From the NCBI GenBank assembly GCA_965227515.1, contig CBDDFZ010000001.1:3615692-3679691 (forward strand): a stretch of 64,000 nt of DNA, written 5' to 3'. Positions 1-15,845 of the stretch are shown piece by piece. Positions within the stretch are counted from its first letter, which is position 1. Each line of letters starts with the position of its first letter. The notes under the pieces are model-generated. The model worked only from the letters and a program-made list of their open reading frames with translations, did not search any database and was not told where the DNA came from. Position numbers and translations under genes: made by a program. This DNA comes from Alphaproteobacteria bacterium (GTDB lineage: Bacteria > Pseudomonadota > Alphaproteobacteria > CALKHQ01).

Positions 1-560
1 CGTTCTGCGCTTCGGCCCGCACCTCGCCGCACAATTGGGTGTTCCTGGAGGGCGTGAAGGCGGCACTGTGCGCGGACCAGGGCTGGAAGGGCGGCGACTA
101 CGCTTCGCCACCGGTCGCCGGGCTGAAGGCATTCGCGCGCGTCTATGCCGGCTGGGCCTATTCGCAGACCTTCTATCGCGAGGGGCTCTTCCGCCAGCTC
201 GGCTTCGCGACGCCGGAAGACCTGCTGGTCGACTGGGAGGACGACCACGCCACGAACTGGGATGCCAACGACCTGCTGGCCAAGCTCGCGACCTGGCAGG
301 CCGGCGATATCAGTGCCAATCCGCTTTATGGCGGCGATTTCGAAAAGGCCCTGGGGGCGATCACCGCGCGTGCGATCCTGATGCCGTCGACCACCGACCT
401 CTACTTCCCGCCTGATGACAATGCCATCGAGGCGCGGCACATGCCCAACGCCGAGTTCCGTCCGTACGCGTCCGACTGGGGCCATTGCGCCGCCAGCCCG
501 GGCAACGACCCCGGCTTCACCGCCGCCCTTGAGGCCAATTTGCGCGAGTTGTTGGGATAG
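1..560 (+). CDS. alpha/beta-fold hydrolase, MetX/homoserine O-acetyltransferase-like, C-terminal part (5' end outside window)
   Basis: Frame is open from the window edge (codon phase from nt 3) to TAG at 558-560. Segments DLYFPPDD and DWGHCA resemble the acid and His regions of MetX-type hydrolases. Codon third positions are GC-rich. Confidence 0.55.
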   Translation, partial: FCASARTSPHNWVFLEGVKAALCADQGWKGGDYASPPVAGLKAFARVYAGWAYSQTFYREGLFRQLGFATPEDLLVDWEDDHATNWDANDLLAKLATWQAGDISANPLYGGDFEKALGAITARAILMPSTTDLYFPPDDNAIEARHMPNAEFRPYASDWGHCAASPGNDPGFTAALEANLRELLG

Positions 561-597
561 GTCCCAAAATCGTCGCCCTCGTCGCCCCACCCCACTC

Positions 598-798
598 GTC
601 GTCCTCGCCCTTGTGGCGAGGACCCATGGCGGTGCCGGTCCCGATGCGCGAGTTGAAGGTCTCTACCGGCGTTGCCGGACGCGTGCAGCCCTCTGGAACC
701 GATCCCGCATGTCGCCCAGGAATGGGTCCTCGCCACAAGGGCGAGGACGACGAAGGAGTGGATTGCCGCGTCGCGCTAACGCGCTCCTCGCAATGACG
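598..798. repeat. REP-like hairpin elements in a convergent intergenic gap
   Basis: GTCGTCCTCGCCCTTGTGGCGAGGACCCAT (598-627) and its inverted copy (722-751) each form a CCTCGCC/GGCGAGG hairpin. GATTGCCGCGTCGCG..CGCTCCTCGCAATGACG (761-798) is the inverse of the element at 56520-56562. The hairpin family recurs at 56689-56715 and 56833-56862. Confidence 0.6.
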
Positions 799-813
799 GC
801 GGGAGAGGCCGCC

Positions 814-1848
814 CTACCCCGCGGGGCGCTTGATCGACTGGTCCACCAAGTCGCCGCGATGCTGCGCGATGGCCGCCATCAGCCGCAGCACCACGCACAC
901 CGCCAGCCGGCTGGTAACACCGCTGACATCGAATATCGGCGCCAGTTCCGACACCTCGATCACGCTCGGCCGGCCCCGCTTTCCGAGTGCTGAGGCGATG
1001 CGCATCATCTCGCGCGATTCCAGCCCGCCCGGCTCGGCCGACGTCACCCCCGGCGCCATTGACGCGTCCATGACGTTGAAGTTGAAACTGAGGTACTGCG
1101 CGTCCGTGCCATTCCAGGCCCGGTCCGCCGCCTCCGCCGCGCCGGCGTCGATGCCGTTGTCGATCAGCTCGAACATCGGATGGAAGCGGATGCCGCGCGC
1201 CTTGGCCAGGTCGACCCAGTCCTTCGGGTTCATCGAGTTGCGCGCGCCGATATGGCCGATATTCGCCGCCGCCAGGTTCGGCAGCTCGGAGATGCGGGCG
1301 AGCGCGCATGTGCTGACGTCGGCCTGACCGGCCCAGTTGTCGGCCAGGTCCAGATTGGCGCCGAAATGGAGGTAGCCCATTTTCTTGTCGGCACCCAGAT
1401 GATCCGACAGCGCCTTGGTCGCCGGGATCGAGATCGAGCGGTCGCCGCCGCAAACGATGGGCGTGATGCCGGCTTCCAGCACCTTCCGGACCGCGTCGTA
1501 AATGCGCTGCCGCGACAGGGTCGGGTTCACCTTCGGCATCGACACGTCGCCGCAGTCGACCGCCGCACCCTGCAGGTCGACCTGATATTCGAACCAGTAG
1601 GGGAAGTATTCCTGGGAGGCGATGCGGAACTCTCGCGGCCCCTCCTCCGAGCCCGGCTTGCCGACATTGCCCTCGTCGAACGGCACGCCGACGAACGCGT
1701 ACTCGACGCCGGCCTCCTTCAGCTTCTCGGTGTCCAGCGGCACGTGGTCGGCGCGCAGGAAGGTGAGTTGCGTCGGCGAGCGGTAGTTTTCGGCATCGTC
1801 GCCACCCAGCGGCGAGAAGATGTGGGCATAGGCCTTGGCGGGGTTCAT
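814..1848 (-). CDS. ureohydrolase (arginase/agmatinase) family protein with degenerate metal-binding motifs; probable non-catalytic partner subunit
   Basis: 344 aa, ATG with AAGGAA SD. Clear paralogue of the upstream gene (EYFPYWFEYQVDL vs QYFPYMFEYDVDL). It carries GGDRS, HFGANLD and SFNFNVMD in place of GGDHS, DxHxD and DxD. Confidence 0.8.
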   Translation of the reverse strand: MNPAKAYAHIFSPLGGDDAENYRSPTQLTFLRADHVPLDTEKLKEAGVEYAFVGVPFDEGNVGKPGSEEGPREFRIASQEYFPYWFEYQVDLQGAAVDCGDVSMPKVNPTLSRQRIYDAVRKVLEAGITPIVCGGDRSISIPATKALSDHLGADKKMGYLHFGANLDLADNWAGQADVSTCALARISELPNLAAANIGHIGARNSMNPKDWVDLAKARGIRFHPMFELIDNGIDAGAAEAADRAWNGTDAQYLSFNFNVMDASMAPGVTSAEPGGLESREMMRIASALGKRGRPSVIEVSELAPIFDVSGVTSRLAVCVVLRLMAAIAQHRGDLVDQSIKRPAG

Positions 1849-1865
1849 GACGTTTCCTTAGATAT

Positions 1866-2924
1866 TCAGGCCGTCTGGCCGGCGGCGCGCAGGGTGGCGG
1901 CCCGGCTGCCGAGATAGTGGTAGACCATGCAGGCGACGAGCTTGATGCTCATCTGGCTGACGTCGAACATCGGGCACAGCTCGGAGATTTCGAGCACATC
2001 GGCGCCATAGGTGCCGGCGATGCGGGCAAGCTGGATCGCCTCGCGCGGCTTGATGCCGAAGCACTCCGGCGCCGTCGTGCCGGGCATGCAGCTCGCGTCC
2101 AGAGAATCCGTGTCCCACGAGCAATAGACCGCGTCGGTACCGTTCCAGGCGATGTCGAAGATCTCGCGGGTGCAGACGTCGACCCCGCGCTCCGCCGCCT
2201 CCATCATCGGGATGATGCGGACCTGATTGTCGACGAAGAAGTCGTGCCAGTCCTTCGGGTTCAGCCCGTTGCGCGAGCCCATGTGGGCCATGTTGGCGCC
2301 GTCGCAGTTCGGCAGGTCGAACGCGCGCGCCGGGCCGGAGCAGTTGGTGTTGCGGATGCCGCCCCAGTCGGGCGCGGAGTCCAGGTGGCAGTCGATGTGC
2401 AGGTAGCCGATCTTGCCGTCGCGGTGGAAATCGGACAGCGCGTGGGCGGCTGGGATCGGCGCCGAGTGGTCGCCACCGCAGAATATCACCTTGGCACCGC
2501 CCTCCAGGCACTCGGTGATGTACTGGTGAATGTACTCGTGGCTGCGGTCGTTGTTGCCGGGCACGATCGGCACGTCGCCGCAGTCGACCGGCCGGAAGAA
2601 CGAGACCAGGTCGACATCGTACTCGAACATATAGGGGAAGTACTGGGTGGTCGCCTCACGCAGGCCGGCCGGCCCCTGCGAGGTGCCTGCGCGCACCATC
2701 TGGCCCTGATCCCACGGCACGCCCAGGAAGCAGATCTTCGCCCCCATCTCGCGGATCGCATGGCGGTCGGGCGGGCAATAGGGCGCGTTCATGAAGGTGG
2801 CGATGCCGGCCGACTTGAAGGTGCCGTTGTGCAGCTTGGGCGAGTTGATGTGATCGTCGGCGCCGCGCTGCTGCTGCGGCCCCTGGTGCTGGTGCGGCAC
2901 GAACTCCCAGGTGCCAGTGCTCAT
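1866..2924 (-). CDS. ureohydrolase (arginase/agmatinase/guanidine-hydrolase) family protein, catalytic-type subunit
   Basis: 352 aa. All three arginase-fold metal motifs are intact: CGGDHS, HIDCHLD, SWDTDSLD. The start lies 7 nt after the hypA stop. Confidence 0.85.
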   Translation of the reverse strand: MSTGTWEFVPHQHQGPQQQRGADDHINSPKLHNGTFKSAGIATFMNAPYCPPDRHAIREMGAKICFLGVPWDQGQMVRAGTSQGPAGLREATTQYFPYMFEYDVDLVSFFRPVDCGDVPIVPGNNDRSHEYIHQYITECLEGGAKVIFCGGDHSAPIPAAHALSDFHRDGKIGYLHIDCHLDSAPDWGGIRNTNCSGPARAFDLPNCDGANMAHMGSRNGLNPKDWHDFFVDNQVRIIPMMEAAERGVDVCTREIFDIAWNGTDAVYCSWDTDSLDASCMPGTTAPECFGIKPREAIQLARIAGTYGADVLEISELCPMFDVSQMSIKLVACMVYHYLGSRAATLRAAGQTA

Positions 2925-2931
2925 GACGTGC

Positions 2932-3327
2932 TCATGGGCGGTGTTCCTCGAACGCGGGTTGGATGGGTCGGGCCGGCGATGCCGGCGCGCCGAACTCGAT
3001 GCCGGTGACCTGCATCTCGCGGCCGGTCACCACCTCGTTCGCCGGCATGCCGCAGGTGCCGCAGCGGAAGGTGTAGCGCGCGGTCGGCCGGCGGGCGGCG
3101 TTGCATGTGCGGCACTGCACGGTCAGTGGCACTTCCTCGATCTCCAGGGCGGCGCCGTCGCACACCGTGCCGCGTGCCGCACGATCGAAGCAGAACAGGA
3201 GCGCGCGCCGGAAGCCCGACAGCTCGCCGAGCCGGATACGGATGGCGGCGACGTGCGTCTCGCCCTGGCTGGCGGCGTGTGCGGCCACCATCTCGATCAA
3301 ATTGCGGGCAATGGTCAGCTCATGCAT
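2932..3327 (-). CDS. hypA: HypA-type nickel metallochaperone
   Basis: N-terminal MHE(L) Ni-binding motif and two CxxC pairs (CRTC ... CGTC). The start overlaps the hypB stop by 8 nt. The longer ORF-track start (3429) would overlap hypB and is rejected. Confidence 0.85.
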
Positions 3328-4135
3328 GGGCGTGATGCGGTGTTGGCGACGCTTGGACCGCATCGCGGGTGCGGGCGAGCCAGTCGACCCAGCCCGCCAT
3401 GCCCTCGCCGGTCCGCGCCGAGAGCTCAAGCACCTCGATGTCGGGGTTCAATGCGCGGGCATGCGCGATGCAGCGCGCCACATCGAAATCGACATGGGGC
3501 AGCAGGTCGATCTTGTTCAGCACCATCAGGTCGGCGGCCATGAACATATCGGGGTACTTGGCCGGCTTGTCGTCGCCCTCGGTCACCGACAGCACGGCGA
3601 CCTTGGCGTGCTCGCCGAGGTCGAAGGTGGCGGGGCAGACCAGGTTGCCGACATTCTCGATGAACAGCACGTCGCCGGCGCCCAAGGTCAGCCCGTCCAT
3701 GGCATGGCCGATCATGTGCGCGTCCAGATGGCAGACCCGGCCAGTGTTGATCTGCACCGCCGGCACGCCGGCCGCCCGGATGCGTGCGGCGTCGTTCTCG
3801 GTCGCCTGGTCGCCCTCGATGACGGCCATCGACATGCGCCCGTCAAGCGCCGCGGCCGTGGCGGTGAGCAGGCTGGTCTTGCCGGCGCCGGGCGACGACA
3901 CGAGGTTGAGGGCGAGCACGCCCAACCCGGCAAACCGTACGCGGTTGGCTTCGGCGTAACCGTCGTTCTTGGCCAGGATGTCGAGCTCGACCGCATGCCA
4001 GTCGCGCTGGCCGTGATTGTGCTGGTGGCCGTGCGCGTGGTCGTGGTCTTGCGCGTGGCTGTGATGATGGTGGCGATGGCCATCCTTGCCACCGATGGTG
4101 ACCTCGCCCTCGCCGCAACCGCATACGCCACACAT
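3320..4135 (-). CDS. hypB: HypB-type Ni-binding GTPase (G3E family)
   Basis: Starts [10 protein letters not shown] (compare E. coli HypB MCTTCGCGEG), followed by the His-rich tract [23 protein letters not shown]-loop GSPGAGKTS, then [14 protein letters not shown] and NKIDL. The ORF-track extension to 4519 overlaps the upstream gene. Confidence 0.9.
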
Positions 4136-4146
4136 GATCGGGAATC

Positions 4147-5061
4147 CTATTCGGCCGCCTTCGCCTGCCACGACGACAGTTCCGGGATCGTGCCCTCGTA
4201 GTATGGCAGTTCGTCCACCCGCGGCGTCCACGATCCGTCGTCGATGCAGGCCTGCACGTGGGTCGCGATCTCTTCCATGGTCGCGAACCACACGCCGCCC
4301 TTGTTCTGCATCTCCTCGATCATCTTGGCGACCCGCTCGCAGCGCGCCAGCCGGCCGGAGACGAACGGATGCCACACCGTGACCCACAGGCCGTTGTGGC
4401 GGTACATCGCGTCGAACTCGGACATGAAGACGTTCATCGCCTCGTCGGGCGACTTGATCGGCATCATGTAGTGCATGTCGGGCGCGTGGGTGTAGTGCGG
4501 CCAGTCGTCCATCGCCCACTGGCTGGGCAGCTCGATCACCTGGCCCTTCTTGGTCTTCAGGATGTAAGGCACGTCGTCGCCCATCAGGCTGGCGTCATAG
4601 ATCATGCCCTGGTCGATCATGTAGTCGAGCGAGTATTTGGAGAAGTTGTAGAGCGGCGCGCGCCAGCCGCGCGGCTTCTTGCCGGTCATCTTGCGGATCG
4701 TTTCGATCTGGCGCTCGAACCAGTAGAGCTCCTCCTCGGCGCTGAGCTGGTTCGGGTTCTCGTGCAGATAGCCGTGGGCGGCGATCTCGTGCCCGCCCTC
4801 CAGGATGATGTCGACCAGGTGCGGATAGCGCTCCATGCACCACGCCGGATAGAAGAACGTCTGCTTGATGTCGTAGCGCTTGTACATCTCCACGATGCGC
4901 GGGATCGCGACCTCGTCGTACTTCAGCCACGACATGGTCGACAGCATGGTCGGCGCGCGGTCGCCGTGCTCCAGGTGCAGGATGCTGTCGGTGTCGATGT
5001 CGAAGGTGATGGCGCAGGCCACGCGGGCGCCGTTCGGCCAGGGCACGGGATTGCTGATCAT
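4147..5061 (-). CDS. polysaccharide deacetylase (NodB-fold, CE4/PuuE-like) family hydrolase
   Basis: 304 aa with TFDIDTD and [15 protein letters not shown] motifs. Paralogue of 52637-53515. GAGGGGA SD. Confidence 0.8.
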
Positions 5062-5094
5062 GGTCGTGGTCCCCTCATCCGCTATGAGAACGGT

Positions 5095-6369
5095 TCACTT
5101 TATGGCAATGCCGTCGGCCTGCACCAGCAGGCCTTCGCGCGGCAGGCCGTAGACACGCACCGGCGTCATCGCCGGCCGGGCATTCGGCGCCACCTGGCGC
5201 CACACATCGCACACGGCGTAGAAGGCGTCGGCCACGTCGGGCGCGCCCTCCTCACCGACCAGGAACAGGTTGAGCTTGACCAGGTCGTCCAGCGACGCGC
5301 CGCCCTCGGCCAGCACCCGCGCCACCCGGTCGAACACGATGCGCGCCTGTCCGGCAACGTCGCCCGGCGCCAGCACATCGCCGCCGCCGCTGAGCGCAAC
5401 CTGCCCGCCGACATAGATCTCCTCGCCCGCCGCAAGCCCGTCCGACGCGAAGGCCGGCTGGTAGCGCCCGCCCAGGTCCGCGGCGGACAGCACGTGGCGC
5501 GCCGGGTCGATCACCGCCATGGCGTCGATCTCCAGCACCAGGCCGGGATAGAGCAGGTCGACCCCGAAGGCGGAGAACACCGGCCCCGGTGCTTTGAAAA
5601 CCTCGCCCGACACGTCCAGGATCGATGGCAGATAGCCGGTCGCCGGATCGCCGCCCTGCGATTGCTTGAAGCAGATCTTCACCCGCACGACGTCGTCCAG
5701 CGTGCCGCCGGCATCGACGACCACCTGCTCGATGAAGCGATAGATATTGCGGGTCTGGGTCACCACGTCGTCGACCGCCACCGACCGGCCCTTCTCGTCG
5801 GCCGAGATCTGGCCGCCGACGAAGATCTGGTTGCCGGTGCGCCACCCCTGGGAAAGCGGCACCGCGATGCTCCAGTCCCAGCTTCCGTCGGGCATGATGC
5901 GCTGGCGGGTGCGCCGTGCCCCGCCGCGCAGCGCTACCCCTTCGATCTGGATCAACTGGCCGGCATAGGGCATGCCCTTGATCCGCACCGCGGTCGCCGC
6001 CGGGCCGGGATCGGGGAAGTACTCCAGACGGACGGCGGTCATGTCCTCCCAGTACTTGGTGGCGTCGGCATCGTCGCCCTCGAAGACGTAGTAGGTGTTC
6101 AGGCGCGCCAGATCGGCCATCTCCAGGCCCGACTGCGCCAGGGTCGCCTTCATGTTCTCGAACACATTGCGGGTCTGGGCGGCGATGTCGCCGGCATCTT
6201 TCACCGAACCGTCGGCATTCAGGGTCTGCTGCCCGCTGACGAAGACCTGGTCGCCGATCTCCACCGACTGCGCGAACGGCACGGGCCGCGCCCAAGCCCA
6301 AACGCCGCCATTGTCGGCGTTGGCGGTTCGCGGCGTCGCATCGCCGGGGTGCGGGACAGGCTGGCTCAT
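5095..6369 (-). CDS. fusion protein with three tandem YjgF/RidA (endoribonuclease L-PSP) domains
   Basis: 424 aa. Three successive ~125-aa units each carry the (V/I)(F/Y)V(S/G)GQ .. Q(T/A)R(N/I)(V/I)(F/Y) .. domain pattern. Confidence 0.8.
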   Translation of the reverse strand: MSQPVPHPGDATPRTANADNGGVWAWARPVPFAQSVEIGDQVFVSGQQTLNADGSVKDAGDIAAQTRNVFENMKATLAQSGLEMADLARLNTYYVFEGDDADATKYWEDMTAVRLEYFPDPGPAATAVRIKGMPYAGQLIQIEGVALRGGARRTRQRIMPDGSWDWSIAVPLSQGWRTGNQIFVGGQISADEKGRSVAVDDVVTQTRNIYRFIEQVVVDAGGTLDDVVRVKICFKQSQGGDPATGYLPSILDVSGEVFKAPGPVFSAFGVDLLYPGLVLEIDAMAVIDPARHVLSAADLGGRYQPAFASDGLAAGEEIYVGGQVALSGGGDVLAPGDVAGQARIVFDRVARVLAEGGASLDDLVKLNLFLVGEEGAPDVADAFYAVCDVWRQVAPNARPAMTPVRVYGLPREGLLVQADGIAIK

Positions 6370-6418
6370 TGTGTCGGGTCCGATTCAGGCACGTCAGATC
6401 AAGCGGATATGGGCAGGG

Positions 6419-7405
6419 TCAGCCGGCAACGGCCAGGCCGCGGTGATACTGCTCCAGGGCAGCGATCGCCTCCTCGGCCGCGCCGTCGCTTTCCGGCAGA
6501 GCACCGCAGTAGGTCTGGATGGCCTTCGCGGCCAGCGGCTTCCATTTCTCGATCCAGTCGCGCATCGCGGCACGGCTCGCCTCGTTGCCGGCGGCGAACT
6601 CCACCAGTGCCGCGCTCCACCGGCGCGACCGCTCGGCATCGCGCAACTGGTTGTCGGCCAGCATCGCCAGCAGCGGGTCGCGGAAGCGCCGCGCCGTCTT
6701 GCCGAGCTGGCGCAGGCATTCGTCGGCGGCCGGCTTGGCGACCACGTTCAGCGCAATGAAGTTTTCGCCCCAGTCGTAGGTGGCCAGCGTGCGCTCGATC
6801 AGTTCGCGCAGGCCCTGCCACGCCGGGTGCTCTTCCCAGTGCCGGCGCTCGTCCTTGCCGAAGCCGCGGTCGGGATGCGCGATCCGAAGCTCGCGGGTGC
6901 GATAGGCCATGCGCGACAGCCAGCGGAACTCGTCGCCCTCCTGGAACCCGGCGGCCGCCGTGATGGTGCTGGCGGGCGCAATCTGCAGGATGTAGGCGGC
7001 GCCCATCTGCAACGCCATCTGCAGGTAGCGGCGCGGCGTGTAGAGGGATTCCAGCACGCCCAGCCAGTCGTCGGCCAACTCGCTGTCGTAGCCCTGCTCG
7101 TTGTGCTCGTCGAGCAGGCCGTCGATGTATTCCTCCTGGCCGTCCTGGGTGCGGGTATAGACACGGTAGACTAGCTCGTCCGGGTCGCGGAACCCCTCCC
7201 AGTCGTCATGCTGCAGCGGGCTCTCGGCGACGTTCTTCTGGTACCAGGTATTCATATCCAGCAACGGCGCCGGCGACAGCTCATAGGCCTGGTCGGGGTA
7301 GCGGTTGCGGGTCTGCAGGTTGGTGGTGACGATCTCGTACTCGCTGGGACGGCGGCGGTTCTTCGCCAGCCCGCTCCAGGTCTTCATGCCGGTCAGTTCA
7401 ACCAT
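6419..7405 (-). CDS. soluble diiron monooxygenase hydroxylase beta subunit (TmoE/TouE-like)
   Basis: 328 aa. Family resemblance to aromatic/alkene monooxygenase beta subunits, and it occupies the position after the effector as in tmoABCDE. Confidence 0.8.
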   Translation of the reverse strand: MVELTGMKTWSGLAKNRRRPSEYEIVTTNLQTRNRYPDQAYELSPAPLLDMNTWYQKNVAESPLQHDDWEGFRDPDELVYRVYTRTQDGQEEYIDGLLDEHNEQGYDSELADDWLGVLESLYTPRRYLQMALQMGAAYILQIAPASTITAAAGFQEGDEFRWLSRMAYRTRELRIAHPDRGFGKDERRHWEEHPAWQGLRELIERTLATYDWGENFIALNVVAKPAADECLRQLGKTARRFRDPLLAMLADNQLRDAERSRRWSAALVEFAAGNEASRAAMRDWIEKWKPLAAKAIQTYCGALPESDGAAEEAIAALEQYHRGLAVAG

Positions 7406-7435
7406 TTCCCCACCCTTCCCGCTTGCGTCCGAAAC

Positions 7436-7735
7436 CTACTTCGCCAAGAAGCGCATCGCTTCGTTGTCGACGCGGATGAACCCCTCGAACGAGGGCATGA
7501 ACACTTCGATGTCGCCACGCGTCACCGCACGGCCCAGCATGTCGCCGACCGTGTCGAAGCGCACCACGCACTCGCCGCGCACCTTGATACGCAGGTAGGA
7601 GGCGTGCTCCTCCACCTGGATCTCGCGGCCCTGGTTGTCTTCCTCGATCGCCTCGACCACGGCGTCGGCCATGTCGCCGGTGCGCATCACCGGGCCGACG
7701 AAGCGGTCCTCCTCAGCTCCAGTTCCGTCTGGCAT
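7436..7735 (-). CDS. monooxygenase effector/coupling protein (MmoB/DmpM family, TmoD-like)
   Basis: 99 aa from the ATG at 7735, which is preceded by a GAGAGGAGGGGG SD. VGPVMRTGD...EITVEE-like pattern (REIQVEEHASYLRIKV) as in TmoD. Confidence 0.8.
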   Translation of the reverse strand: MPDGTGAEEDRFVGPVMRTGDMADAVVEAIEEDNQGREIQVEEHASYLRIKVRGECVVRFDTVGDMLGRAVTRGDIEVFMPSFEGFIRVDNEAMRFLAK

Positions 7736-7774
7736 CGCCCCCTCCTCTCGCGGCCCGGCCGCCAACCGCCGCGT

Positions 7775-8098
7775 TCAGCCCACGCCGGCCGGTGTCAGCA
7801 CCACCTTGACCTCGCCGTCCTCGACCTTGACCGGATAGCTGGTCAGCGCCACGCCGGTCGGGTTCACGCCCTTGCCGGTCAGCACGTCGAACTCCCACAT
7901 ATGCGCCAGGCACGTCAGCACGCAGCCGTCCAAATCGCCCTCGGCCAGCGACTGGTCCTGGTGCGGGCAGCGCGGATGGAACGCGCGCACCTCACCGCCC
8001 GGCGCGTGCACGATCAGCACGTCGGTGCCGGCGACCGTGAACAGCTCCATCTCGCCTTCCCAGATATCGTCCAGGCTGCAAACGGTCTGGTATTCCAT
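7775..8098 (-). CDS. Rieske [2Fe-2S] ferredoxin (TmoC-like)
   Basis: MEYQTVCSLDDIWEGEM aligns with the TmoC N-terminus. Cluster ligands CPH ... CLAH are present. The ORF-track start at 8113 is a TTG, so the ATG at 8098 is preferred. Confidence 0.85.
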   Translation of the reverse strand: MEYQTVCSLDDIWEGEMELFTVAGTDVLIVHAPGGEVRAFHPRCPHQDQSLAEGDLDGCVLTCLAHMWEFDVLTGKGVNPTGVALTSYPVKVEDGEVKVVLTPAGVG

Positions 8099-8109
8099 GC
8101 CGGTCCCGC

Positions 8110-8370
8110 TCAAGCTTCCGGATAGATTTCGATGGCTTCCATCTCGGCCAGCCCGGCGCCGGACACGGTAGCATCGTCGGCCAGCGGCGCGTCGGCGCCC
8201 TGCACCTTCACTTTCAGCCTGGTGCCATCCGGGAACGGCGCCACCAGCACGCTGGCCACCTGATCCAGCGCCTTCTCAACCACGGTCGTCATGGGGTCGC
8301 CATCGTCGACCACCAGCACCTTGTAGCCGTAGTCGCCGTGCAGGTAGCAGGCGAGCGGGAAGTCTGCCAT
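8110..8370 (-). CDS. TmoB-like small subunit of the diiron monooxygenase hydroxylase
   Basis: 86 aa, MADFPLACYL..YKVLVVDDGDPM..VEK pattern like TmoB. Position between alpha and ferredoxin. The long ORF-track version (to 8685) overlaps the alpha gene. Confidence 0.7.
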   Translation of the reverse strand: MADFPLACYLHGDYGYKVLVVDDGDPMTTVVEKALDQVASVLVAPFPDGTRLKVKVQGADAPLADDATVSGAGLAEMEAIEIYPEA

Positions 8371-8381
8371 GACGCCGTCCG

Positions 8382-9881
8382 TCACTCTGCGGCCTGGGCC
8401 GGCGGCTGGTGATAGCCGTCGATCCAGGCATAGTCGTAGCCGTCGACACCGCGCTCGGCCGGGCTCTGGCCCATGTATTCGTAGAAGGCGTCCTCGCCGG
8501 GCGGGATGGTGCCGTCGAACGCCCGGTCGATGATGCTGCGGTGGCCCTTGTAGCGGTTGGGCTCGACCTCGAAGATCCACTTGCAGACCGGCGAGCAGAA
8601 GTGATAGCGGCGCCCGTCCAGGTGAATGTGGTGGTCGGTCGCGTGCGCACCGGTCCCCGCGACGCCCGAGACCTCCAGCCCGCACATGTTGCAGATCAGC
8701 GGCGGCGCCACCGGCACCGTCTTCTCATAGGCACCCTGGCGGATGTTCTCGATGATGACGTCCCAGCACTTGCCGTAGGTGTCGTTCCAGCCGGGATACT
8801 TCTCCTCCAGCCAGTCGCGCTCCTCCGGCGACACGCCGGCGATCGGCCGCCACCATTCGGTCGCGCGGTAGATGTAGACGCCGATCTGCTGGGCGTGGTG
8901 GAAGGTCTCGATATCCCACTGGAAGTAGTCCCAGTACCACGGCATATCGAGGCCCAGCGCATCCAGGCTGCGGCCGAACTGGCCGATGACCCACTCGTGC
9001 ATGAACTCCTTCAGCGAGTTCTCCCGGTGCTCCAGCGGGGTGTAGTAGTCCATGCCGATGCCGCTCAGCGCGGAGAACTGCTTCCACATCCGCCAGAAGG
9101 CGATGTCGACCAGTTGCTGCGCCTCTTTCTTGCGGCCGTTCTCCAGCATGATGCGCACCATCGGCTCGCCGATCTGGGCGTGGCGCGCCTCGTCGGACTG
9201 GATCGACTGCAGCATGGTCGCGAATGTGTGGTCGCCGAACTTGGCCGCGTCCGCCGACAGGGCGACGAACTGCAGGTTCGTGAACGCCTGCTCCAGGCCC
9301 ATGTTCAACATGATGCCGGCACTCACCGCGTCGCGGGTGTGGGCGATGTCGTCCAGCGCGTGGCGCAGGCTGATGATGATCCAGTTCTCGGTCTTCGACG
9401 ACTTGTGGCACCAGTCGAACACGCGGTCGTGGCGCAGGAACTCATAGGCGAAGTAGATCTGGATCTGACCGTGGCGGATTTCGTCCAGCGTGCCGAAGGT
9501 CGCCATGTTGCGCAGGCCGGGCGCGCGGCCGAAGCGGGTCATCCGCCCGAACGCGGATGCGGAGTGGAACTCCGCCCAGCACACCGCGCTGAAGTGCAGC
9601 GCCAGCAACGCCTTCCAGTGCGGAGACGCATTCTTGAAGAAGTTGGAGCGTGACAGCGCCGCCTTCACCGAATAGGCGCCGACGTCCTTCTCGCGCTGGG
9701 TCTTCACATAGTCGCGGTACGAGACCTTGTAGGGCTCGTCGAACTTCTCCCACTCCTCGACCGGGATGCCGAAAGAGTTCGCCATCGGCGCCGGATACAG
9801 CTCGTCCTCGGTGACGTATTTCGGTGTCCAGTTGGTCTCGCGCGCCAGATCGTACCATTCGCTCATCGGCAGCATGGCCAT
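8382..9881 (-). CDS. soluble diiron monooxygenase hydroxylase alpha subunit (TmoA/TouA-like)
   Basis: 499 aa from the ATG at 9881 (GGAGGAG SD). Diiron motifs AEFH, DEIRH, GLEQAF and DEARH. C-terminal Cys-rich CNMCG...HFCSPVCK segment. Confidence 0.9.
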   Translation of the reverse strand: MAMLPMSEWYDLARETNWTPKYVTEDELYPAPMANSFGIPVEEWEKFDEPYKVSYRDYVKTQREKDVGAYSVKAALSRSNFFKNASPHWKALLALHFSAVCWAEFHSASAFGRMTRFGRAPGLRNMATFGTLDEIRHGQIQIYFAYEFLRHDRVFDWCHKSSKTENWIIISLRHALDDIAHTRDAVSAGIMLNMGLEQAFTNLQFVALSADAAKFGDHTFATMLQSIQSDEARHAQIGEPMVRIMLENGRKKEAQQLVDIAFWRMWKQFSALSGIGMDYYTPLEHRENSLKEFMHEWVIGQFGRSLDALGLDMPWYWDYFQWDIETFHHAQQIGVYIYRATEWWRPIAGVSPEERDWLEEKYPGWNDTYGKCWDVIIENIRQGAYEKTVPVAPPLICNMCGLEVSGVAGTGAHATDHHIHLDGRRYHFCSPVCKWIFEVEPNRYKGHRSIIDRAFDGTIPPGEDAFYEYMGQSPAERGVDGYDYAWIDGYHQPPAQAAE

Positions 9882-9910
9882 GGCCCCATCTCCTCCACTG
9901 GCAGTGCGGT

Positions 9911-10178
9911 CCACGAATTTCGTGGCGAACCTGGCCAGTGAAGCACGAATTCCTCCGCACTGCCAAGCGCGCTTGTGAGAAATTCGCGATATTGCCCAAA
10001 AATGCCGCACAATTCGTGGCTGGCGTGCAGGCCATGCCGCATTCGCAGGCAGTCAGGCGATCCGGCTTGTGCCAGTTCGAGGGTTGACAAGGACTTCATT
10101 GACGAAATTCGTGCGGATGAATACCGTGGGTACCGCAAACGCTCAGCAGTTCAGCTAGTTTGCATCGAAATTCGTGAC
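9911..10178. promoter_or_regulatory. array of CACGAA-n-TTCGTG operator-like boxes in the divergent control region
   Basis: Perfect 7-1-7 palindrome CCACGAAtTTCGTGG at 9911-9925. Related boxes at 9977-9988, 10005-10019, 10101-10114 and 10164-10178. TTCG cores recur about every 31 bp. TTGACA hexamer at 10084-10089. Confidence 0.5.
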
Positions 10179-10232
10179 CGCGCCGGCCTTCGCGCTGGAC
10201 ATGGTCCGCGGCCGCGGACGTTGGGGAACGCG

Positions 10233-10994
10233 ATGGCAGCCACAAACGGCAGGTCGGGGGGCACGAAGGCGAACGGCGCCAAGGCCGGGGGTGCGAAGAC
10301 GGGCGGCGCGAAAACGCGCGGCCGCTCCAAGCCTTCCGGAAAGTCGGCCGGAAAATCCGCTGCCAAGTCTTCCGCGAAATCCAGGCGAGCCGAGAGCGGC
10401 GCCGTCGATGCCCGCCTCGTCATGGGCGCGCGCAGCCTGCTCTCCAGCAACGGTGACGAAAACGTCGAAGATGCGTTCGGCCACCGCCCGCCGCCCATCG
10501 AGGGCCTGAACCGCAGCATCGTCGAAATCCTGCAGGAGGACGGCCGCGCCTCGCTGTCGTCGATCGCGGAAGTGCTGGGCGTTTCCGAGGCCACCGTGCG
10601 TAGCCGCGTGTCGCGCATGCGCAAGGCCAACCTGATCAACTTCATCGCCGTCATCAACCCGCTGGCCCTGGGCTTCACCGCATGGGCGATGCTGGGCATC
10701 CGGGTCGCCCAAGGGGCCAGCGCCGACGATGTGGCGCGCTACTTCAGCGACTGCCCGGAGGTGGTCTACGTCATGCGGGTTGCCGCCCGCTTCGACCTGT
10801 TGGCCGAGATCGTCTGCGAGACGCCCGACGACCTGCGCGACTTCCTGGATCGCCATTGTTATGGCGCACCCGACGTGGCGTCGGTCGAGCCGATGATCGG
10901 GCTCGGTCTCTACAAGAGCCTGTTCAAGTGGGACCGGCCGATCGTTGCCGGCAATGGTTCCAATCACGGCGGCAACAGCAACGGCAGCAAATAG
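10233..10994 (+). CDS. Lrp/AsnC-family transcriptional regulator with a ~90-aa Lys/Ala/Gly/Ser-rich N-terminal extension
   Basis: HTH_AsnC-like LNRSIVEILQEDGRASLSSIAEVLGVSEATVRSRVSRM followed by a RAM/AsnC_trans_reg-like C-terminal half. The N-terminus carries AKAGGAKTGGAKTRGRSKPSGKSAGKSAAKSSAKS. The start choice is uncertain. Confidence 0.75.
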   Translation: MAATNGRSGGTKANGAKAGGAKTGGAKTRGRSKPSGKSAGKSAAKSSAKSRRAESGAVDARLVMGARSLLSSNGDENVEDAFGHRPPPIEGLNRSIVEILQEDGRASLSSIAEVLGVSEATVRSRVSRMRKANLINFIAVINPLALGFTAWAMLGIRVAQGASADDVARYFSDCPEVVYVMRVAARFDLLAEIVCETPDDLRDFLDRHCYGAPDVASVEPMIGLGLYKSLFKWDRPIVAGNGSNHGGNSNGSK

Positions 10995-11124
10995 GGAGCC
11001 GGCCGATGGGGGGCGGGACATCGAAGCATGCAGGAACAGCGGCGCCGGCGGTCGCCGCACCACATGCGGCAAAGCTCTTGCATGGGACCGCCCCATGGCT
11101 GGGCCGCGAGACGAGTGGTGACCG

Positions 11125-12024
11125 ATGAGCGTGCGCGACGACATCAGCGACACCGATACGCGCGACGTGGAAACGATGCACGAGCACGACGGCGGTGCAG
11201 CGTCCCCGGCGCCGGTGTTCAAGCCGCCGCGCGAGCGCTTCCTGGAGGTGCGCGGCACCGTCAGCCAGCACCAGACGTTGTGGCTCGGCCTGATCGGTGT
11301 TGTCGTGTTCTTCGCGATCTGGGAAATCGCGCACCAGTTGACGCCGGAGGGTGAGCAGAAGTTCCTGCCCGGCGCGATCCAGGTGGTGTCCAAGATCGGC
11401 GAGCTGATCGATGAGGAGGGCTTCCTCTACGACATCGCCAAGTCGGTCTACCGCATCTATGTCAGCTTCCTGGCCGCCTGCCTGCTGGCGGTGCCGCTGG
11501 GCCTGCTGATGGGCAGCTTCGTGAAGATGCGGGCACTGATCAACCCGACCGTGGGCGGCCTGCGCTACCTGCCGGCCGCCTCGTTCGTGCCGCTGCTGCT
11601 GGTCTACCTCGGCCCCACCGACCTCTCCAAGATGGCACTGCTGTTCCTGGGCTGCGTGTTCTTCCTGATCGCGCTGATCCTGGACAACGTGCTGGCGGTG
11701 CCGAAGGAGTTTGCGGAATCCGCGCAGACCATGGGCGCCAGCCGCAGCCATATCGTCTGGCACGTCATCTTCAAGGCGTCGGCACCGCAGATCCTGGACT
11801 CCATGCGCAACATGATCGCGGTGTCGTGGACCTATCTGGTCATCGCGGAGATCGTGGCGGCGACCGACGGGATTGGCGCGGTGATGATGCGCGCGTCACG
11901 CTTCCTGCATGTCGACATCATCATGGCGGGGATTCTGACCATCGGCGTGCTCGGGGTGCTGACCGACATCTCGTTCCGGCTGATCAGCCGCGCCCTGTTC
12001 CCCTATGTCTACGCACGGCGCTGA
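11125..12024 (+). CDS. ABC transporter permease, NitT/TauT (nitrate/sulfonate/bicarbonate-type) family
   Basis: 299 aa, multi-TM, resembles SsuC/TauC-type BPD permeases. Confidence 0.8.
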   Translation: MSVRDDISDTDTRDVETMHEHDGGAASPAPVFKPPRERFLEVRGTVSQHQTLWLGLIGVVVFFAIWEIAHQLTPEGEQKFLPGAIQVVSKIGELIDEEGFLYDIAKSVYRIYVSFLAACLLAVPLGLLMGSFVKMRALINPTVGGLRYLPAASFVPLLLVYLGPTDLSKMALLFLGCVFFLIALILDNVLAVPKEFAESAQTMGASRSHIVWHVIFKASAPQILDSMRNMIAVSWTYLVIAEIVAATDGIGAVMMRASRFLHVDIIMAGILTIGVLGVLTDISFRLISRALFPYVYARR

Positions 12025-12039
12025 GGCTGGAGGCGGGGG

Positions 12040-12873
12040 ATGAACATGCCAGTCGATCCAGCCAGCCGCGAGGCGGCGACCCAGACCGCGGCATCGCCGC
12101 CCATCCGTTGCCGCCGCGTCACCAAGGAGTACCTGGGCGGCAGCCGCGTCGCGCTGAACGACATCACCCTCGACATCCATGAGAACCAGGTGACCGCCCT
12201 GATCGGCCCGTCCGGCTGCGGCAAGACCACCCTGCTCCGCCTGATCGCCGGCCTGGAATTCCCGACCCGCGGCGAGGTCCTGATGCACGACAAGCCGGTG
12301 CTGGGCCCCGGCCCGGAACGCGGCATGGTGTTCCAGGCCTACACCTCGTTCCCGTGGCTGACCGCGCGCAAGAACGTCGAGCACGGCATGAAGATCCAGA
12401 ACCTGCCGCGGCCCGAGCGGATGAGCCGGGCGCAGCATTTCCTGGAGCTGGTTCACCTGGACGAGTTCGCCGAGGCCTATCCGGTGGAGATGTCGGGCGG
12501 CATGAAGCAGCGCGTCGCCATCGCGCGCACACTGGCGCAGAACCCGGACCTGCTGCTGCTGGACGAGCCGTTCGGCGCGCTGGACGCCCAGGTGACCTGG
12601 GAAATGGAAGAGATGGTCATCGAGATCATCGAGAACGAGAGCAAGACCGTCATCCTGGTCACCCACGACATCCAGGAAGCGATCTACCTGGCCGACCGCA
12701 TCATCTTCTTCACGCGGCAGCCGGGCCGGATCAAGGCCGACCTGTCGATGGAGTTCAAGGAGGGACGGCGTTTCGCCAAGAAGGAGGAGCTGCTGGTCCA
12801 TCCCGGATACCCGGAGATGGAGAAGCTGCTCTACACGATGATGCGCGAAGAGATTCAGGGGCGCATCTCGTGA
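12040..12873 (+). CDS. ABC transporter ATP-binding protein, NitT/TauT family
   Basis: Walker A GPSGCGKTT, signature SGGMKQR, Walker B LLLLDEPF. GGAGG SD. Confidence 0.9.
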   Translation: MNMPVDPASREAATQTAASPPIRCRRVTKEYLGGSRVALNDITLDIHENQVTALIGPSGCGKTTLLRLIAGLEFPTRGEVLMHDKPVLGPGPERGMVFQAYTSFPWLTARKNVEHGMKIQNLPRPERMSRAQHFLELVHLDEFAEAYPVEMSGGMKQRVAIARTLAQNPDLLLLDEPFGALDAQVTWEMEEMVIEIIENESKTVILVTHDIQEAIYLADRIIFFTRQPGRIKADLSMEFKEGRRFAKKEELLVHPGYPEMEKLLYTMMREEIQGRIS

Positions 12874-12950
12874 GCCGGCGGCCAGGCAGGCGGCCGGGCC
12901 GGACAACCAGTGGGCCGATGGGGGTCCACGCAACCTCGGGGAGATCGGGT

Positions 12951-14000
12951 ATGAGGGACCACATCATGCGCGTTTGCAGGCCAGCCGCGCTGGCACTGGG
13001 CATTGTCGCGTTGGGGGGCGCGGCGGCCTCGACGGCAAGTGCACAGGAAACGGTGCGTATCGGCCACTTCAGCTGGCCCGGCTACGGCTTCTTCTACGTG
13101 GCTCAGGAACAGGGCTTGGCGCCCGACCTGGAGTTCGAGTTCACGGTGATCGAAGACCCGGTGCAGCTGTTCAGCCTGCTGGCGACCGATCAGCTCGACG
13201 TCGTGCTCAGCACCATCGAGTTCGGGCCGATCGCCGCCGCCGAGGACATGGCGCTGAAGCTGGTCTCGCTGACCAATCTCGGCTACGGCTCCGACCACAT
13301 CATCGTCCACCCCGACATCGAGAGCCCGGAAGACCTGCGCGGCCAGCAGGTGGCGGTACTGGAGGGCGGCCTGTCGCAGATCTACATGGCGATCTGGCTC
13401 GAGCAGCAGGGCATCGCCTGGGACGAGGTCGAGATGGTCAACCTGATCGCCGGTGACGCCGCCGCCGCGATGATCAGCGGCCAGGTGGCCGCCGCCGAGC
13501 TGTGGGACCCGTTCGGCGCCCAGGTGCTGGCGGAACTGGAAGGCTCCCGCGAGCTCAGCCACTCGCGCGAACCGCAGTGGCTTGAGTCGGCGCTGATCGC
13601 CGATGCGCTGTTCATGTCGGACACGTTCCTGACCGAGAACCGCGACACCGCCACCAAGACCGTGCAGGCGCTGTTCGCCGGCGTCGAGTGGTGGCGCGCC
13701 AACGCGACCGAGGCGAACGATATCATCGCCGAGGCGGTCGGCTTCAGCGTCGACGACGTGCAGGCCATCCTGGGCGGCGAGAACAACCCCGAGGACGGGA
13801 CCCTCTATATGTACTCGCTGGAAGAGGCGGCCCAGTTCTGCGGCGTGGCCGATGGCGAGCCGCCGTTCGGCCAGACCAACGGCCAGATGGCCGATCACTG
13901 GGCGCTGACCAACACCTGGTGGATCAACTTCGGGCTGATGGACGAGACGGTCGCGCCCGAAGCCGGGCTCGATTGCGCCCTCCTGGGCGAGGCGATGTAG
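12951..14000 (+). CDS. ABC transporter periplasmic substrate-binding protein (NMT1/SsuA/TauA-like)
   Basis: Signal peptide MRVCRPAALALGIVALGGAAASTASAQ and a GGGGAG SD. The ORF-track N-terminal extension (12354) overlaps the ATPase gene and is rejected. Confidence 0.8.
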   Translation: MRDHIMRVCRPAALALGIVALGGAAASTASAQETVRIGHFSWPGYGFFYVAQEQGLAPDLEFEFTVIEDPVQLFSLLATDQLDVVLSTIEFGPIAAAEDMALKLVSLTNLGYGSDHIIVHPDIESPEDLRGQQVAVLEGGLSQIYMAIWLEQQGIAWDEVEMVNLIAGDAAAAMISGQVAAAELWDPFGAQVLAELEGSRELSHSREPQWLESALIADALFMSDTFLTENRDTATKTVQALFAGVEWWRANATEANDIIAEAVGFSVDDVQAILGGENNPEDGTLYMYSLEEAAQFCGVADGEPPFGQTNGQMADHWALTNTWWINFGLMDETVAPEAGLDCALLGEAM

Positions 14001-14099: not shown

Positions 14100-15845
14100 C
14101 TAGCCCCCGGTGCCGACGCTGACTCCGTAGACCTCAAGCGCGCGCTCGGCGCTGATCCAGCCCTCGGCCACGTCATGGCGCACCTTCTCAGGGTCGCGTG
14201 CCTTCGGGTCCTCGTAGCCGCCGCCGCCGCAGGAGATCGAGACCATCATCTCGCCCGGCTCAAGCTTGACCTCGGCGCAACCCGGCTGCGGGTCCAGCGA
14301 CCCGTCGCGGCGGCGCACGTACTGGGCCGACGGGCCACCGGTGAGGCCGCCGCGCGCGCCCTGCGCCGGGTTGACGTTGCCGTCGCTGACGTAAGCGACG
14401 GTCATGGTGCCCTCGGTCGGGCCGAACACCGAGTAGGCGCTCAACGCGCCGCGTGTCCGCCCGGCGCCCTCGGTATCGGGCAGCAGCTTGCGGGCCTCGA
14501 CGTGGATCGGGTGGCGCATCTCGTCGAGCTCGATGCTGTCCTGGTAGCACATGCCGGCATTGCCGACATGGACGATGGAGAGCCAGCCGTCGGTGGTGGG
14601 CGCAGCGGCCCCACCGGTAATGCCGACGTAGATCTCGTTGACGTAGTCGTGGCCGGTGCGCGGATCGCGGCCGGAGATCACACCGCACGAGGGAGGAATG
14701 CAGCTTCCGGTCTCCGCCATGCCGATGCCGTCTCTGAGGTCGGCAATGGCGCGCTGCACCGGGTTGGCGACATGGTCGGCGACGTTGGTGGTGGCAACCG
14801 AGCAGCTCGTCGGGTGACGGGGCACGCCGACGATGCAGTTCTCGCGCAGCTTCACCTTCACCCGGCGGAAGCTGCCGGCGTTCTTCGGCACCGTGTGGTC
14901 GATGGAGTTGAAGATGCCGACCAGCGGCGCTGAGAGCGCACACCCCTCCGACAGATTGAGGCCGTTCGGCATGCAATCCGGATTATCGGTCATGTCGACC
15001 TCGATCCGCGCCGCCTCGGCGTCGACCGTCACGTCGACCTTGATGGTGATGCCGTCCTCCGGCGAGCCGGGGAACGGGTCATGGGTACTGGTCGTGACCA
15101 CCCGTCCGCTGGGGATGGCGCGGATCGCCTGGACCATGCGCTCCTCTGAATAGTCGAACCAGTCCTCGGCAAAGGCGGCCAGCGTGTCCCAGCCAACCTC
15201 GCGGCCCAGCGCCAGCATCTCCCGCTCGCCGATCCGTGCCGCGCCCAGTGTCGCCAGATAGTCGCCCCACCACTGGTGCGGCACCCGAATACGCTGCTGG
15301 CACATGCGGACGAGGTCCATGTTGTGCTGGTAGTCGGACTGGATCTTTACCGCCGGGAAGATCAGCGCGCCCTCGGCATAGACGTCCTGCGCAGCCCCCA
15401 TATAGGTGGTCGGCAGCGCGTTGCCGCAGTCGGCCTGGTGCGCCTTGGCCAGCACGGTGAAGCGATGCACGCCGTCGTCGTCGATCACCGGGATCAGGAT
15501 CGAATGGTCAGCCGGGTGGGTACAGCCGTGATAGGGCGAGTTGTGCAGATAGGCGTCGCCGCGCGCCAACACCGGATGGTTGTCGGTCATGGTGCGGGCC
15601 ATGATGTCCGGCCCGTAGAGCACATGGATCGGCAGGCTCTCGGCAACCGTCAACAGGCGGTGGTCGGCGGTCAGGATGACGCACGAGAAGTCGCGCGCGA
15701 TGGTCAGGATGCCGGAGCGCCCGGTGCGCAGCAGCGTGTTCGACATCTTGCGCGCGATGCCTTCCAGCCGCGCGTTCAGCACGGCCAACCGCACGCCATC
15801 GGCGCCCGCGCCCGCGTTCGTTTTGGCCTTTGCCATCTCGTTCAT
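14100..15845 (-). CDS. hyuB: hydantoinase B/oxoprolinase family protein (pair 1)
   Basis: The ATG at 15845 forms an ATGA overlap with the hyuA stop. Hydantoinase_B-like throughout, but the N-terminus (VLNARLEGIARKMSNTLLRTGRSG) diverges from pairs 2 and 3. Confidence 0.85.
   Translation of the reverse strand: MNEMAKAKTNAGAGADGVRLAVLNARLEGIARKMSNTLLRTGRSGILTIARDFSCVILTADHRLLTVAESLPIHVLYGPDIMARTMTDNHPVLARGDAYLHNSPYHGCTHPADHSILIPVIDDDGVHRFTVLAKAHQADCGNALPTTYMGAAQDVYAEGALIFPAVKIQSDYQHNMDLVRMCQQRIRVPHQWWGDYLATLGAARIGEREMLALGREVGWDTLAAFAEDWFDYSEERMVQAIRAIPSGRVVTTSTHDPFPGSPEDGITIKVDVTVDAEAARIEVDMTDNPDCMPNGLNLSEGCALSAPLVGIFNSIDHTVPKNAGSFRRVKVKLRENCIVGVPRHPTSCSVATTNVADHVANPVQRAIADLRDGIGMAETGSCIPPSCGVISGRDPRTGHDYVNEIYVGITGGAAAPTTDGWLSIVHVGNAGMCYQDSIELDEMRHPIHVEARKLLPDTEGAGRTRGALSAYSVFGPTEGTMTVAYVSDGNVNPAQGARGGLTGGPSAQYVRRRDGSLDPQPGCAEVKLEPGEMMVSISCGGGGYEDPKARDPEKVRHDVAEGWISAERALEVYGVSVGTGG

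Follow-up and report, generated by a model that had tools for sequence, protein, structure and literature searches.

Three papers from 2024 describe a metformin/dimethylguanidine hydrolase system, and here we compare with it four adjoining genes, hypB, hypA, and a pair of ureohydrolase genes designated α and β, that lie in a 64,000-nucleotide stretch of alphaproteobacterial DNA (contig CBDDFZ010000001.1; the whole analysed stretch is called the window). The metformin-degradation operon joins hypA and hypB to a pair of ureohydrolase genes (Sinn et al. 2024, Nat Commun 15:8045, PMC11399263). Metformin hydrolase (MefH) is a Ni2+-dependent α2β4 heterohexamer in which metal is bound by α only, and neither subunit is active alone (PMC11399263); the published identity between α and β is about 33–34%. 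Metformin degraders share MefH genes that are >97% identical and frequently located on plasmids (PMC11399263, PMC10927577). The more widespread relatives, DmgH, are dimethylguanidine hydrolases that are inactive on metformin, and specificity has been traced to α position 184 and positions 288–290 (PMC11399263). Activating the recombinant MefH and DmgH enzymes required co-expression of the hypA and hypB genes that lie directly upstream (PMC11399263); Tassoulas et al. take this view of HypAB in the MfmAB case as well and draw a parallel with GhaA/GhaB of guanidine hydrolase (PMC10927577). When the operon of Hyphomicrobium sp. SMAG_U6089 was synthesised and assayed, dimethylguanidine was hydrolysed and metformin was not (PMC11399263).

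We conclude, with a probability of roughly 85%, that the hypB-hypA-α-β unit of the window (minus strand, from 4135 to 814) belongs to the MefH/DmgH system of heteromeric, nickel-dependent hydrolases with the arginase (ureohydrolase) fold and that HypA and HypB are its nickel loaders. The gene identities, the conservation of the metal ligands, the tight spacing, and the conserved synteny are observed for the window directly. Nickel dependence, the need for HypAB, the heterohexameric assembly, and the substrate are taken from the literature on orthologues, and we infer that the window enzyme would behave in the same way. The four genes are:

3320..4135, minus strand: hypB, GTPase nickel metallochaperone, 271 aa (TIGR00073, HypB_prefix_1, PF02492, PDB matches)
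2932..3327, minus strand: hypA, nickel metallochaperone, 131 aa (PF01155; PDB 3A43, 6G81)
1866..2924, minus strand: α, predicted catalytic subunit of a MefH/DmgH-type Ni-dependent ureohydrolase, 352 aa (PDB matches, alignment)
814..1848, minus strand: β, predicted noncatalytic subunit of the same enzyme, 344 aa (PDB matches, alignment)

Sequence comparison identifies the two downstream genes as a MefH/DmgH α/β pair rather than as generic ureohydrolases. The α protein matches metformin hydrolase subunit A (8X3G_A and 8SNF_D, also 8RYI) with an E value of 5.5e-178 and β matches subunit B (8RYI_C) with 1.5e-158, while the next-best family for both is GdmH (7ESR; 1.5e-42 for α and 2.4e-41 for β). 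In a four-way alignment, α is 69.3% identical to MefH-α, β is 64.5% identical to MefH-β, and the identity between the window α and β is 39.5%. The α protein keeps all six metal ligands (H153, D178, H180, D182, D271, and D273), and they align with the residues that hold nickel in the MefH crystal structure (H158, D183, H185, D187, D276, and D278). The metal site of β is degenerate: R137, G163, N165, N256, and N258 replace five of the six ligands and D167 alone is kept, as in MefH-β (the order at the six sites is R, G, N, D, N, N in the window and R, G, Q, D, N, N in MefH-β). The α/β architecture, the six nickel ligands, and the upstream hypB-hypA genes are common to the window and to MefH, MfmAB, and MetCaCb (8RYI, 8SNF, and 8X3G). 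GdmH (Sll1077) with GhaA/GhaB of Synechocystis (7ESR/7OI1) is likewise a nickel enzyme of the arginase fold with hydrogenase-independent HypA/HypB-like chaperones. However, GdmH is encoded by a single homohexameric gene where the window has an α/β pair, and its similarity is far more distant; for these two reasons we rejected the reading of the locus as a GdmH-type guanidine hydrolase. An earlier note on this DNA, made from the letters alone, had proposed that the locus encodes a nickel enzyme in a fold that usually uses manganese. This is correct for the orthologues (PMC11399263, PMC10927577) but does not hold as a novelty, the four-gene system having been described in 2024.

Both chaperones carry the features that the earlier note had read from their sequences. 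In HypA, the N terminus reads MHELT and the two CxxC pairs are CRTC and CGTC; the protein matches PF01155 with an E value of 1.3e-27 (96.5 bits, cut-off 28.9) and scores 85.5 bits against NCBIfam TIGR00100, slightly under the cut-off of 88.1. HypB has an N-terminal CxxCGC high-affinity site, a 22-residue His-rich tract with 12 His, a P-loop (SPGAGKTS), and the motifs GRVCHLDAH, ENVGNLVCP, and NKID. It scores 290.6 bits against the TIGR00073 hypB model (cut-off 121.2) and 44.9 bits, at its N terminus, against HypB_prefix_1 (cut-off 30), and it also matches PF02492. Among solved structures, those closest to the two proteins are of archaeal and Helicobacter origin, including 3A43 and 6G81 for HypA and the archaeal and H. 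pylori HypB structures 2HF8, 2WSM, and 4LPS for HypB. Reasoning from the enzymes already characterised, HypA would carry nickel at its MHE N terminus and structural zinc at the two CxxC pairs, and the HypB GTPase would use the CxxCGC site, the His-rich tract as a nickel store, and the Cys-His-Cys site of its G domain. Together they would deliver Ni2+ to α, keeping more abundant metals out of the site. The α subunit would then hold a di-nickel centre through H153, D178, H180, D182, D271, and D273, and β, its metal ligands lost, would act as an obligatory structural partner, as in the published α2β4 hexamer.

The four genes are packed end to end. Reading the DNA directly, we found that the hypB and hypA genes overlap by 8 nt (ATGCATGA), that the hypA stop codon TGA is followed after 7 nt by the ATG of α, and that the α stop codon TGA is followed after 17 nt, with AAGGAA inside, by the ATG of β. 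On the other side, the TAG stop codon of a gene for a CE4/NodB-fold hydrolase precedes the hypB ATG by 11 nt. The 8-nt overlap and the 7- and 11-nt gaps were all part of the earlier note and are confirmed on the DNA. This tight spacing of hypB-hypA-α-β is consistent with translational coupling. A promoter and terminator scan of positions 1–11200 gave zero promoter-like sites and a single terminator-like match, on the wrong strand; because the DNA is GC-rich and matches were fewer than in shuffled sequences, the scan is uninformative for operon boundaries, and the finding of no terminator-like sites between hypB, hypA, α, and β is to be read with that limit.

We called open reading frames (ORFs) by codon-position GC and scanned the 48 that cover the window against Pfam. 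Among these 48 ORFs we found no match to hydrogenase subunits (NiFeSe_Hases), to HypC, HypD, HypE, or HypF, to urease or the UreD, UreE, UreF, and UreG families, or to the HupE/UreJ family. Stretches skipped by the ORF filter were read by eye, and of these the substrate-binding protein of an ABC transporter was the one later scanned; they appear to hold this binding protein, a permease, an ABC ATPase, and an 850-nt noncoding stretch. The earlier statement that the window has no hydrogenase structural, hypCDEF, or ure genes is thus upheld by the Pfam scan and by the reading.

The association of hypAB with α-β recurs across the family. A search of a protein collection with α returned >100 clusters at 55–89% identity, and from a scan of one genome per species we kept the best 80 of 143 loci and mapped the window proteins onto them by tblastn. 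These 80 loci belong mostly to uncultured Alpha- and Gammaproteobacteria, many of them apparently marine or sponge-associated, and they include the two experimentally characterised loci in the set, those of Aminobacter niigataensis DSM 7050 (L069) and Hyphomicrobium SMAG_U6089 (L051). Synteny was counted in the 75 loci with at least 2.5 kb of sequence upstream of α. Directly upstream of α, hypA was present in 57 of the 75, hypB in 53, and both, in several orders, in 50; at least one of the two lay within 10 kb of α-β in 64. A urease alpha gene was found within 10 kb of α-β in 27 of the 75 loci. The nearest HypB relatives with readable context, P0155 and P0128, are both encoded in hypB-hypA-α-β units. 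A single chaperone gene was detected beside α-β in a few loci (hypA only in L022, L025, L026, and L028; hypB only in L020, L021, and L047), which are metagenome-assembled genomes (MAGs) of Arenicellales and Poriferihabitaceae that carry the monooxygenase module described below. The proposal that HypA and HypB load nickel into the adjacent ureohydrolase is strongly supported by the gene spacing, by the synteny in 50 of 75 loci, and by the HypAB requirement of the orthologues.

The most likely substrate, by analogy with the assayed relatives, is N,N-dimethylguanidine, which would be hydrolysed to dimethylamine and urea. The α specificity patch of the window consists of C179 and G282-T-T-A285, and patch and ligands are identical to those of L051. 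Since the L051 enzyme hydrolyses dimethylguanidine and not metformin, dimethylguanidine is the best guess for the window enzyme. By tblastn, the window proteins are 76% (α), 71% (β), 62% (HypB), and 50% (HypA) identical to their L051 counterparts. The pattern H-D-C-H-D-D-D plus G-T-T-A, shared by the window and L051, is the commonest in the family, occurring in 54 of the 82 sequences compared. The Aminobacter DmgH differs in having S184 and S-T-S where the window has C and T-T-A, and MefH has C and N-S-A preceded by A, so that the patch reads A-N-S-A in MefH and G-T-T-A in the window. We rejected the reading of the locus as a metformin hydrolase: the locus lacks the A-N-S-A patch, and the assayed relative with 76% identity does not act on metformin. 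Because the window gene is a distant, chromosomal-type relative of MefH, metformin activity is not expected.

Compared with the DmgH loci of A. niigataensis DSM 7050 and Hyphomicrobium sp. SMAG_U6089, the window has the same order hypB-hypA-α-β and the same degenerate β site, and a homologous NMT1-type ABC transporter and Lrp regulator are also found near the unit. It differs in that its 64 kb hold neither a urease cluster nor a HupE/UreJ nickel importer, and in that the genes directly before the unit, on its strand, are those of a monooxygenase/RidA/CE4 operon, not those of a transporter. The genes of this neighbourhood are:

4147..5061, minus strand: CE4/NodB-fold hydrolase, 304 aa, which closes the monooxygenase module (PF01522)
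5095..6369, minus strand: triple RidA/YjgF (Rid family) fusion, 424 aa (PF01042 with three matched stretches; TIGR00004)
6419..7405, minus strand: TmoE-like diiron monooxygenase hydroxylase beta subunit (PF02332, E 1e-60)
7436..7765, minus strand: TmoD/MmoB-like monooxygenase effector/coupling protein (PF02406, E 3.6e-23)
7775..8113, minus strand: TmoC-like Rieske [2Fe-2S] ferredoxin (PF00355, E 3.8e-17)
8110..8370, minus strand: TmoB-like small hydroxylase subunit, 86 aa (PF06234, E 8.9e-15; start MADFPL picked from the ORF)
8382..9881, minus strand: TmoA/TouA-like diiron hydroxylase alpha subunit with a C-terminal YHS domain (PF02332, PF04945); we take its start to be MAMLPMSEW, from PDB residue ranges and the TouA N terminus
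9975..10994 (ORF limits), plus strand: Lrp/AsnC-family regulator, divergent from the monooxygenase operon (PF13404, PF01037)
11125..14000, plus strand: NitT/TauT-type ABC transporter (permease 11125–12024, ATPase 12040–12873, binding protein ~12975–14000)

The true start of the Lrp regulator probably lies further inside the ORF, because the helix-turn-helix is at ORF residues 178–216. The transporter genes match PF00528 and PF00005, and the NMT1/SsuA-like binding protein matches SsuA_fam with an E value of 4e-22, below the cut-off. The upstream genes follow the tmoA-B-C-D-E order of TmoABCDEF and TouABCDEF, and the hydroxylase alpha subunit matches toluene/o-xylene monooxygenase (1T0Q) with an E value of 1e-185 and toluene 4-monooxygenase (3DHG) with 4e-176. 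In contrast to TmoABCDEF, the window has no TmoF-type reductase (Fer2-FAD-NAD), and only ~50 nt separate the TmoE-like and RidA genes (6369–6419); the reductase for this monooxygenase must be supplied from elsewhere. Locus L090 carries a TmoF-type reductase (7522–8562), and in several others the space at this position would accommodate one. The module also differs from Tmo/Tou in continuing with the triple-RidA and CE4 genes and in lying in a nitrogen-compound catabolic region rather than in an aromatic-degradation cluster.

This module was seen in the window (4147–9881, minus strand) and in L017, L020–L023, L025, L026, L028, L037, L047, L066, and L089–L128. Across marine metagenomes, its CE4 protein is 79–90% identical. 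Triple-RidA orthologues (52–71% identical) immediately precede the CE4 gene wherever the loci extend far enough, and Lrp orthologues (60–69% identical) occupy the same position in L021, L078, L106, and L108. The α-β genes occur in two kinds of context, and homologous transporters adjoin both. In the first (for example L082), an Lrp gene and an ABC transporter are followed by hypB, hypA, α, β, and then a urease cluster; in the second (for example L081), hypA-α-β is convergent with CE4-RidA3-tmoEDCBA, followed by the transporter. In L088, hypA-α-β is followed by a glutamine-synthetase-like gene, a reversed hypB, urease, and then tmoA. The window is the only case seen in which the module runs straight into hypB-hypA-α-β on one strand. 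Near some DmgH loci we also observed glutamine-synthetase-like, GcvT-family, and MttB-family methyltransferase genes (L082, 3399–4820 and 18524–21068; L088, 12253–13662); such neighbours would fit a downstream handling of the released methylated amine.

Several observations weigh against assigning HypA and HypB to the ureohydrolase, or against the details of that assignment. Eleven of the 75 α-β loci have neither hypA nor hypB within 10 kb (L003, L006, L007, L008, L010, L011, L013, L019, L024, L042, and L043). These include close relatives of the window (82–87% α identity), and seven of the 11 have an adjacent urease cluster with ureE/F/G/D. Local chaperone genes are therefore the rule for the family but are not obligatory in cis. 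A second set of observations concerns HypB itself. The HypB of Inmirania thermothiophila (L084, 7658–8780) is encoded in a full [NiFe]-hydrogenase/hypFCDE cluster and is 66% identical to the window HypB overall and 71% in the G domain, whereas the DmgH-linked HypBs are less close (Hyphomicrobium 68%, Aminobacter 59%). The earlier note had proposed a HypA/HypB phylogeny as a check. Run for HypB as a rough neighbour-joining tree of G domains, without support values and with few hydrogenase-linked sequences, it nests the L084 HypB among the DmgH-linked ones and did not separate ureohydrolase-linked from hydrogenase-linked HypB. We consequently rejected HypB sequence as a discriminator of the client, which is assigned by context alone. 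Phylogeny is neutral on dedication to the ureohydrolase, and context supports it; recruitment of the chaperones to ureohydrolases seems to have taken little sequence change, because the L084 HypB is closer to that of the window than some DmgH-linked HypBs are. It is also possible that a hydrogenase or urease outside the 64-kb window shares these chaperones. As to the substrate, its assignment is an extrapolation from a 76%-identical enzyme, and an α-β unit that stands behind a monooxygenase module, with neither urease nor HupE/UreJ as partner, could act on a different guanidine compound.

The broader form of this objection is that HypA and HypB are ordinary hydrogenase or urease maturation factors whose true client, alone or alongside the ureohydrolase, is encoded at another chromosomal site, and we consider it improbable. 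NCBIfam places the window HypB in the hydrogenase HypB equivalog, far over the cut-off, and the HypB of a true hydrogenase cluster is as similar and as intermingled in the tree as described above; our analysis of this genome covers the 64-kb window. The H. pylori HypA/HypB pair (PDB entries 4LPS and 2KDX) serves both hydrogenase and urease, so that several clients are possible for one pair. However, hypB, hypA, α, and β are strung together by an 8-nt overlap and a 7-nt spacer, the four-gene unit recurs in 50 of the 75 loci, hypCDEF, hydrogenase, and urease genes are missing from the 64 kb, and orthologous hypAB is reported as required for activation of the orthologous enzyme (PMC11399263). The one true hydrogenase cluster examined, L084, has its own hypAB: the pair belongs to the same protein families as that of the window but is surrounded by genes for the large and small hydrogenase subunits, hycI, and hypC/F/D/E, none of which is present in the window. 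That HypA and HypB might also, or instead, load nickel into the CE4/NodB-fold hydrolase, as the earlier note had suggested, is not supported, and we regard it as very improbable. The 11-nt gap does make it look as if CE4 and hypB share a transcript, and CE4-like genes (51–56% identical) lie near hypBA-α-β in L033, L041, and L063. The CE4 residues D21, D23, H91, H96, and H100 are invariant across nine aligned orthologues, from which we infer that they form the Asp/His metal site of the family. CE4 enzymes normally use zinc or cobalt, and the PuuE branch needs no metal; the closest structure to the window protein is 3RXZ (E 7e-53), with HpPgdA (3QBU) and the PuuE allantoinase (3CL6) further off. 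Against this client, 54 of the 64 loci with hypAB by α-β have no orthologue of the CE4 gene. Moreover, the CE4 gene travels with the monooxygenase operon: in a metagenome scan with a CE4 alignment, which gave about 40 loci with close orthologues (79–90% identity), these always form the 3′ gene of a TmoABCDE-RidA3 operon wherever upstream sequence exists. Among these metagenomic loci, hypAB was seen only where α-β is present (L107 and L111), and it is absent downstream of CE4 in L090, L095, L104, L106, and L110 (over 10 kb in three and 4–5 kb in two). Where related genomes carry both modules, CE4 and hypA-α-β lie on opposite strands. The 11-nt spacing between CE4 and hypB is thus the junction of two modules lying end to end, not a chaperone–client pair, and the adjacent ureohydrolase remains the client we favour.

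The same junction raises the question of whether the two modules act together. We consider it possible, but on balance unlikely, that α-β, still nickel-loaded by HypAB, does not act on free environmental dimethylguanidine but completes a longer pathway, in which the monooxygenase, triple-RidA, and CE4 proteins oxidise and open a larger, transporter-imported nitrogen compound and release a guanidine (dimethylguanidine or a relative) for α-β to cleave. The eleven window genes from the tmoA-like gene to β are all co-directional with short spacers, and the Lrp regulators and NMT1-type ABC transporters are homologous between both locus types. The module lies within 10 kb of α-β in 11 of the 75 genome loci (Arenicellales, Poriferihabitaceae, Acidiferrobacteraceae, and Rhodospirillales MAGs), with arrangements that differ, being convergent or co-directional behind urease, and in a reverse search α-β follows the module in five metagenomic loci (L100, L107, L108, L111, and L115). 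According to Sinn et al., no biological source of dimethylguanidine is known (PMC11399263). Set against this, most α-β loci have no monooxygenase module, and the module also occurs without α-β (L090, L095, L104, L106, and L110), in which case it is followed by an enolase-superfamily gene and an amidase or by an amine oxidase. A literature search found no documented chemistry joining a toluene-monooxygenase-like enzyme to guanidine, a search for a diiron monooxygenase together with RidA and polysaccharide deacetylase found no paper combining all three, and the adjacency is explicable by a common regulator and transporter. A functional link between the module and α-β is plausible. That the tmoABCDE-like, triple-RidA, CE4, hypB, hypA, and α-β genes constitute one pathway making (dimethyl)guanidine from a larger nitrogen compound is doubtful; in its favour, the module recurs by DmgH-type genes in unrelated marine and sponge-associated lineages. 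A methylated guanidino compound or an N-heterocycle as the starting material is speculation.

The rest of the window is a nitrogen-compound catabolic region with three hydantoinase A/B pairs, a dihydropyrimidinase, a hydantoin-racemase-family gene, several ABC transporters, a dimethylformamidase-beta-like gene, and an isochorismatase-family hydrolase. The hydantoinase B/A paralogue pairs, which are caprolactamase- or oxoprolinase-like, lie at 14100–17938, 34317–38199, and 44156–48033 on the minus strand. At least two of them adjoin ABC transporter genes, and one is followed by an Asp/Glu/hydantoin racemase-family gene (43350–44159) and an ornithine cyclodeaminase-family gene (42367–43380). The gene at 22588–24774 (plus strand) encodes a 728-aa protein with a C-terminal domain like that of the N,N-dimethylformamidase beta subunit (PF20254, E 1e-84) and has no NCBIfam name; near an enzyme that would release dimethylamine, it might be tied to methylated-amine or amide metabolism. 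Another metallochaperone set stands beside hydrolases at 52637–56340, where a second CE4/PuuE-like hydrolase (52637–53515, plus strand) precedes a COG0523 CobW/ZigA-like metallochaperone GTPase (53843–54898) and a dihydropyrimidinase/D-hydantoinase (54925–56340, plus strand; TIGR02033, 571.7 bits, above the cut-off). A repeat search of the window turned up only segments of paralogous genes and a single short intergenic repeat, none bearing on HypAB. A 64-nt direct repeat (56564–56627 and 56874–56937, 88% identical) lies in the 850-nt noncoding gap at 56340–57192. Spurious ORFs in this gap and in the 560–814 region downstream of β give similar peptides (GPRHKGE.D. and SPQGRGRR), and this similarity between 56340–57192 and ~400–814 suggests a dispersed intergenic repeat element.

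Together, the locus adds a moderately divergent member to the MefH/DmgH family, and its operon context is new, the HypAB-ureohydrolase system itself having been known since 2024. The assignment corrects the annotation: the labels given by pipelines would be "hydrogenase nickel incorporation protein" and "agmatinase," while together the genes are predicted to encode a Ni-dependent guanidine-compound hydrolase of the MefH/DmgH type. Judging from the >100 protein clusters and the 80 best genome loci, this family is widespread, and the characterised C...GTTA variant, not the Aminobacter form, is the commonest in our set. The recurring neighbourhood of the monooxygenase module offers a testable lead on a question raised by the discoverers of DmgH, why bacteria keep a dedicated dimethylguanidine enzyme. 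If the two modules did form one pathway, the missing biological source of the DmgH substrate would be identified, and a toluene-monooxygenase-like enzyme would have a role outside hydrocarbon metabolism.

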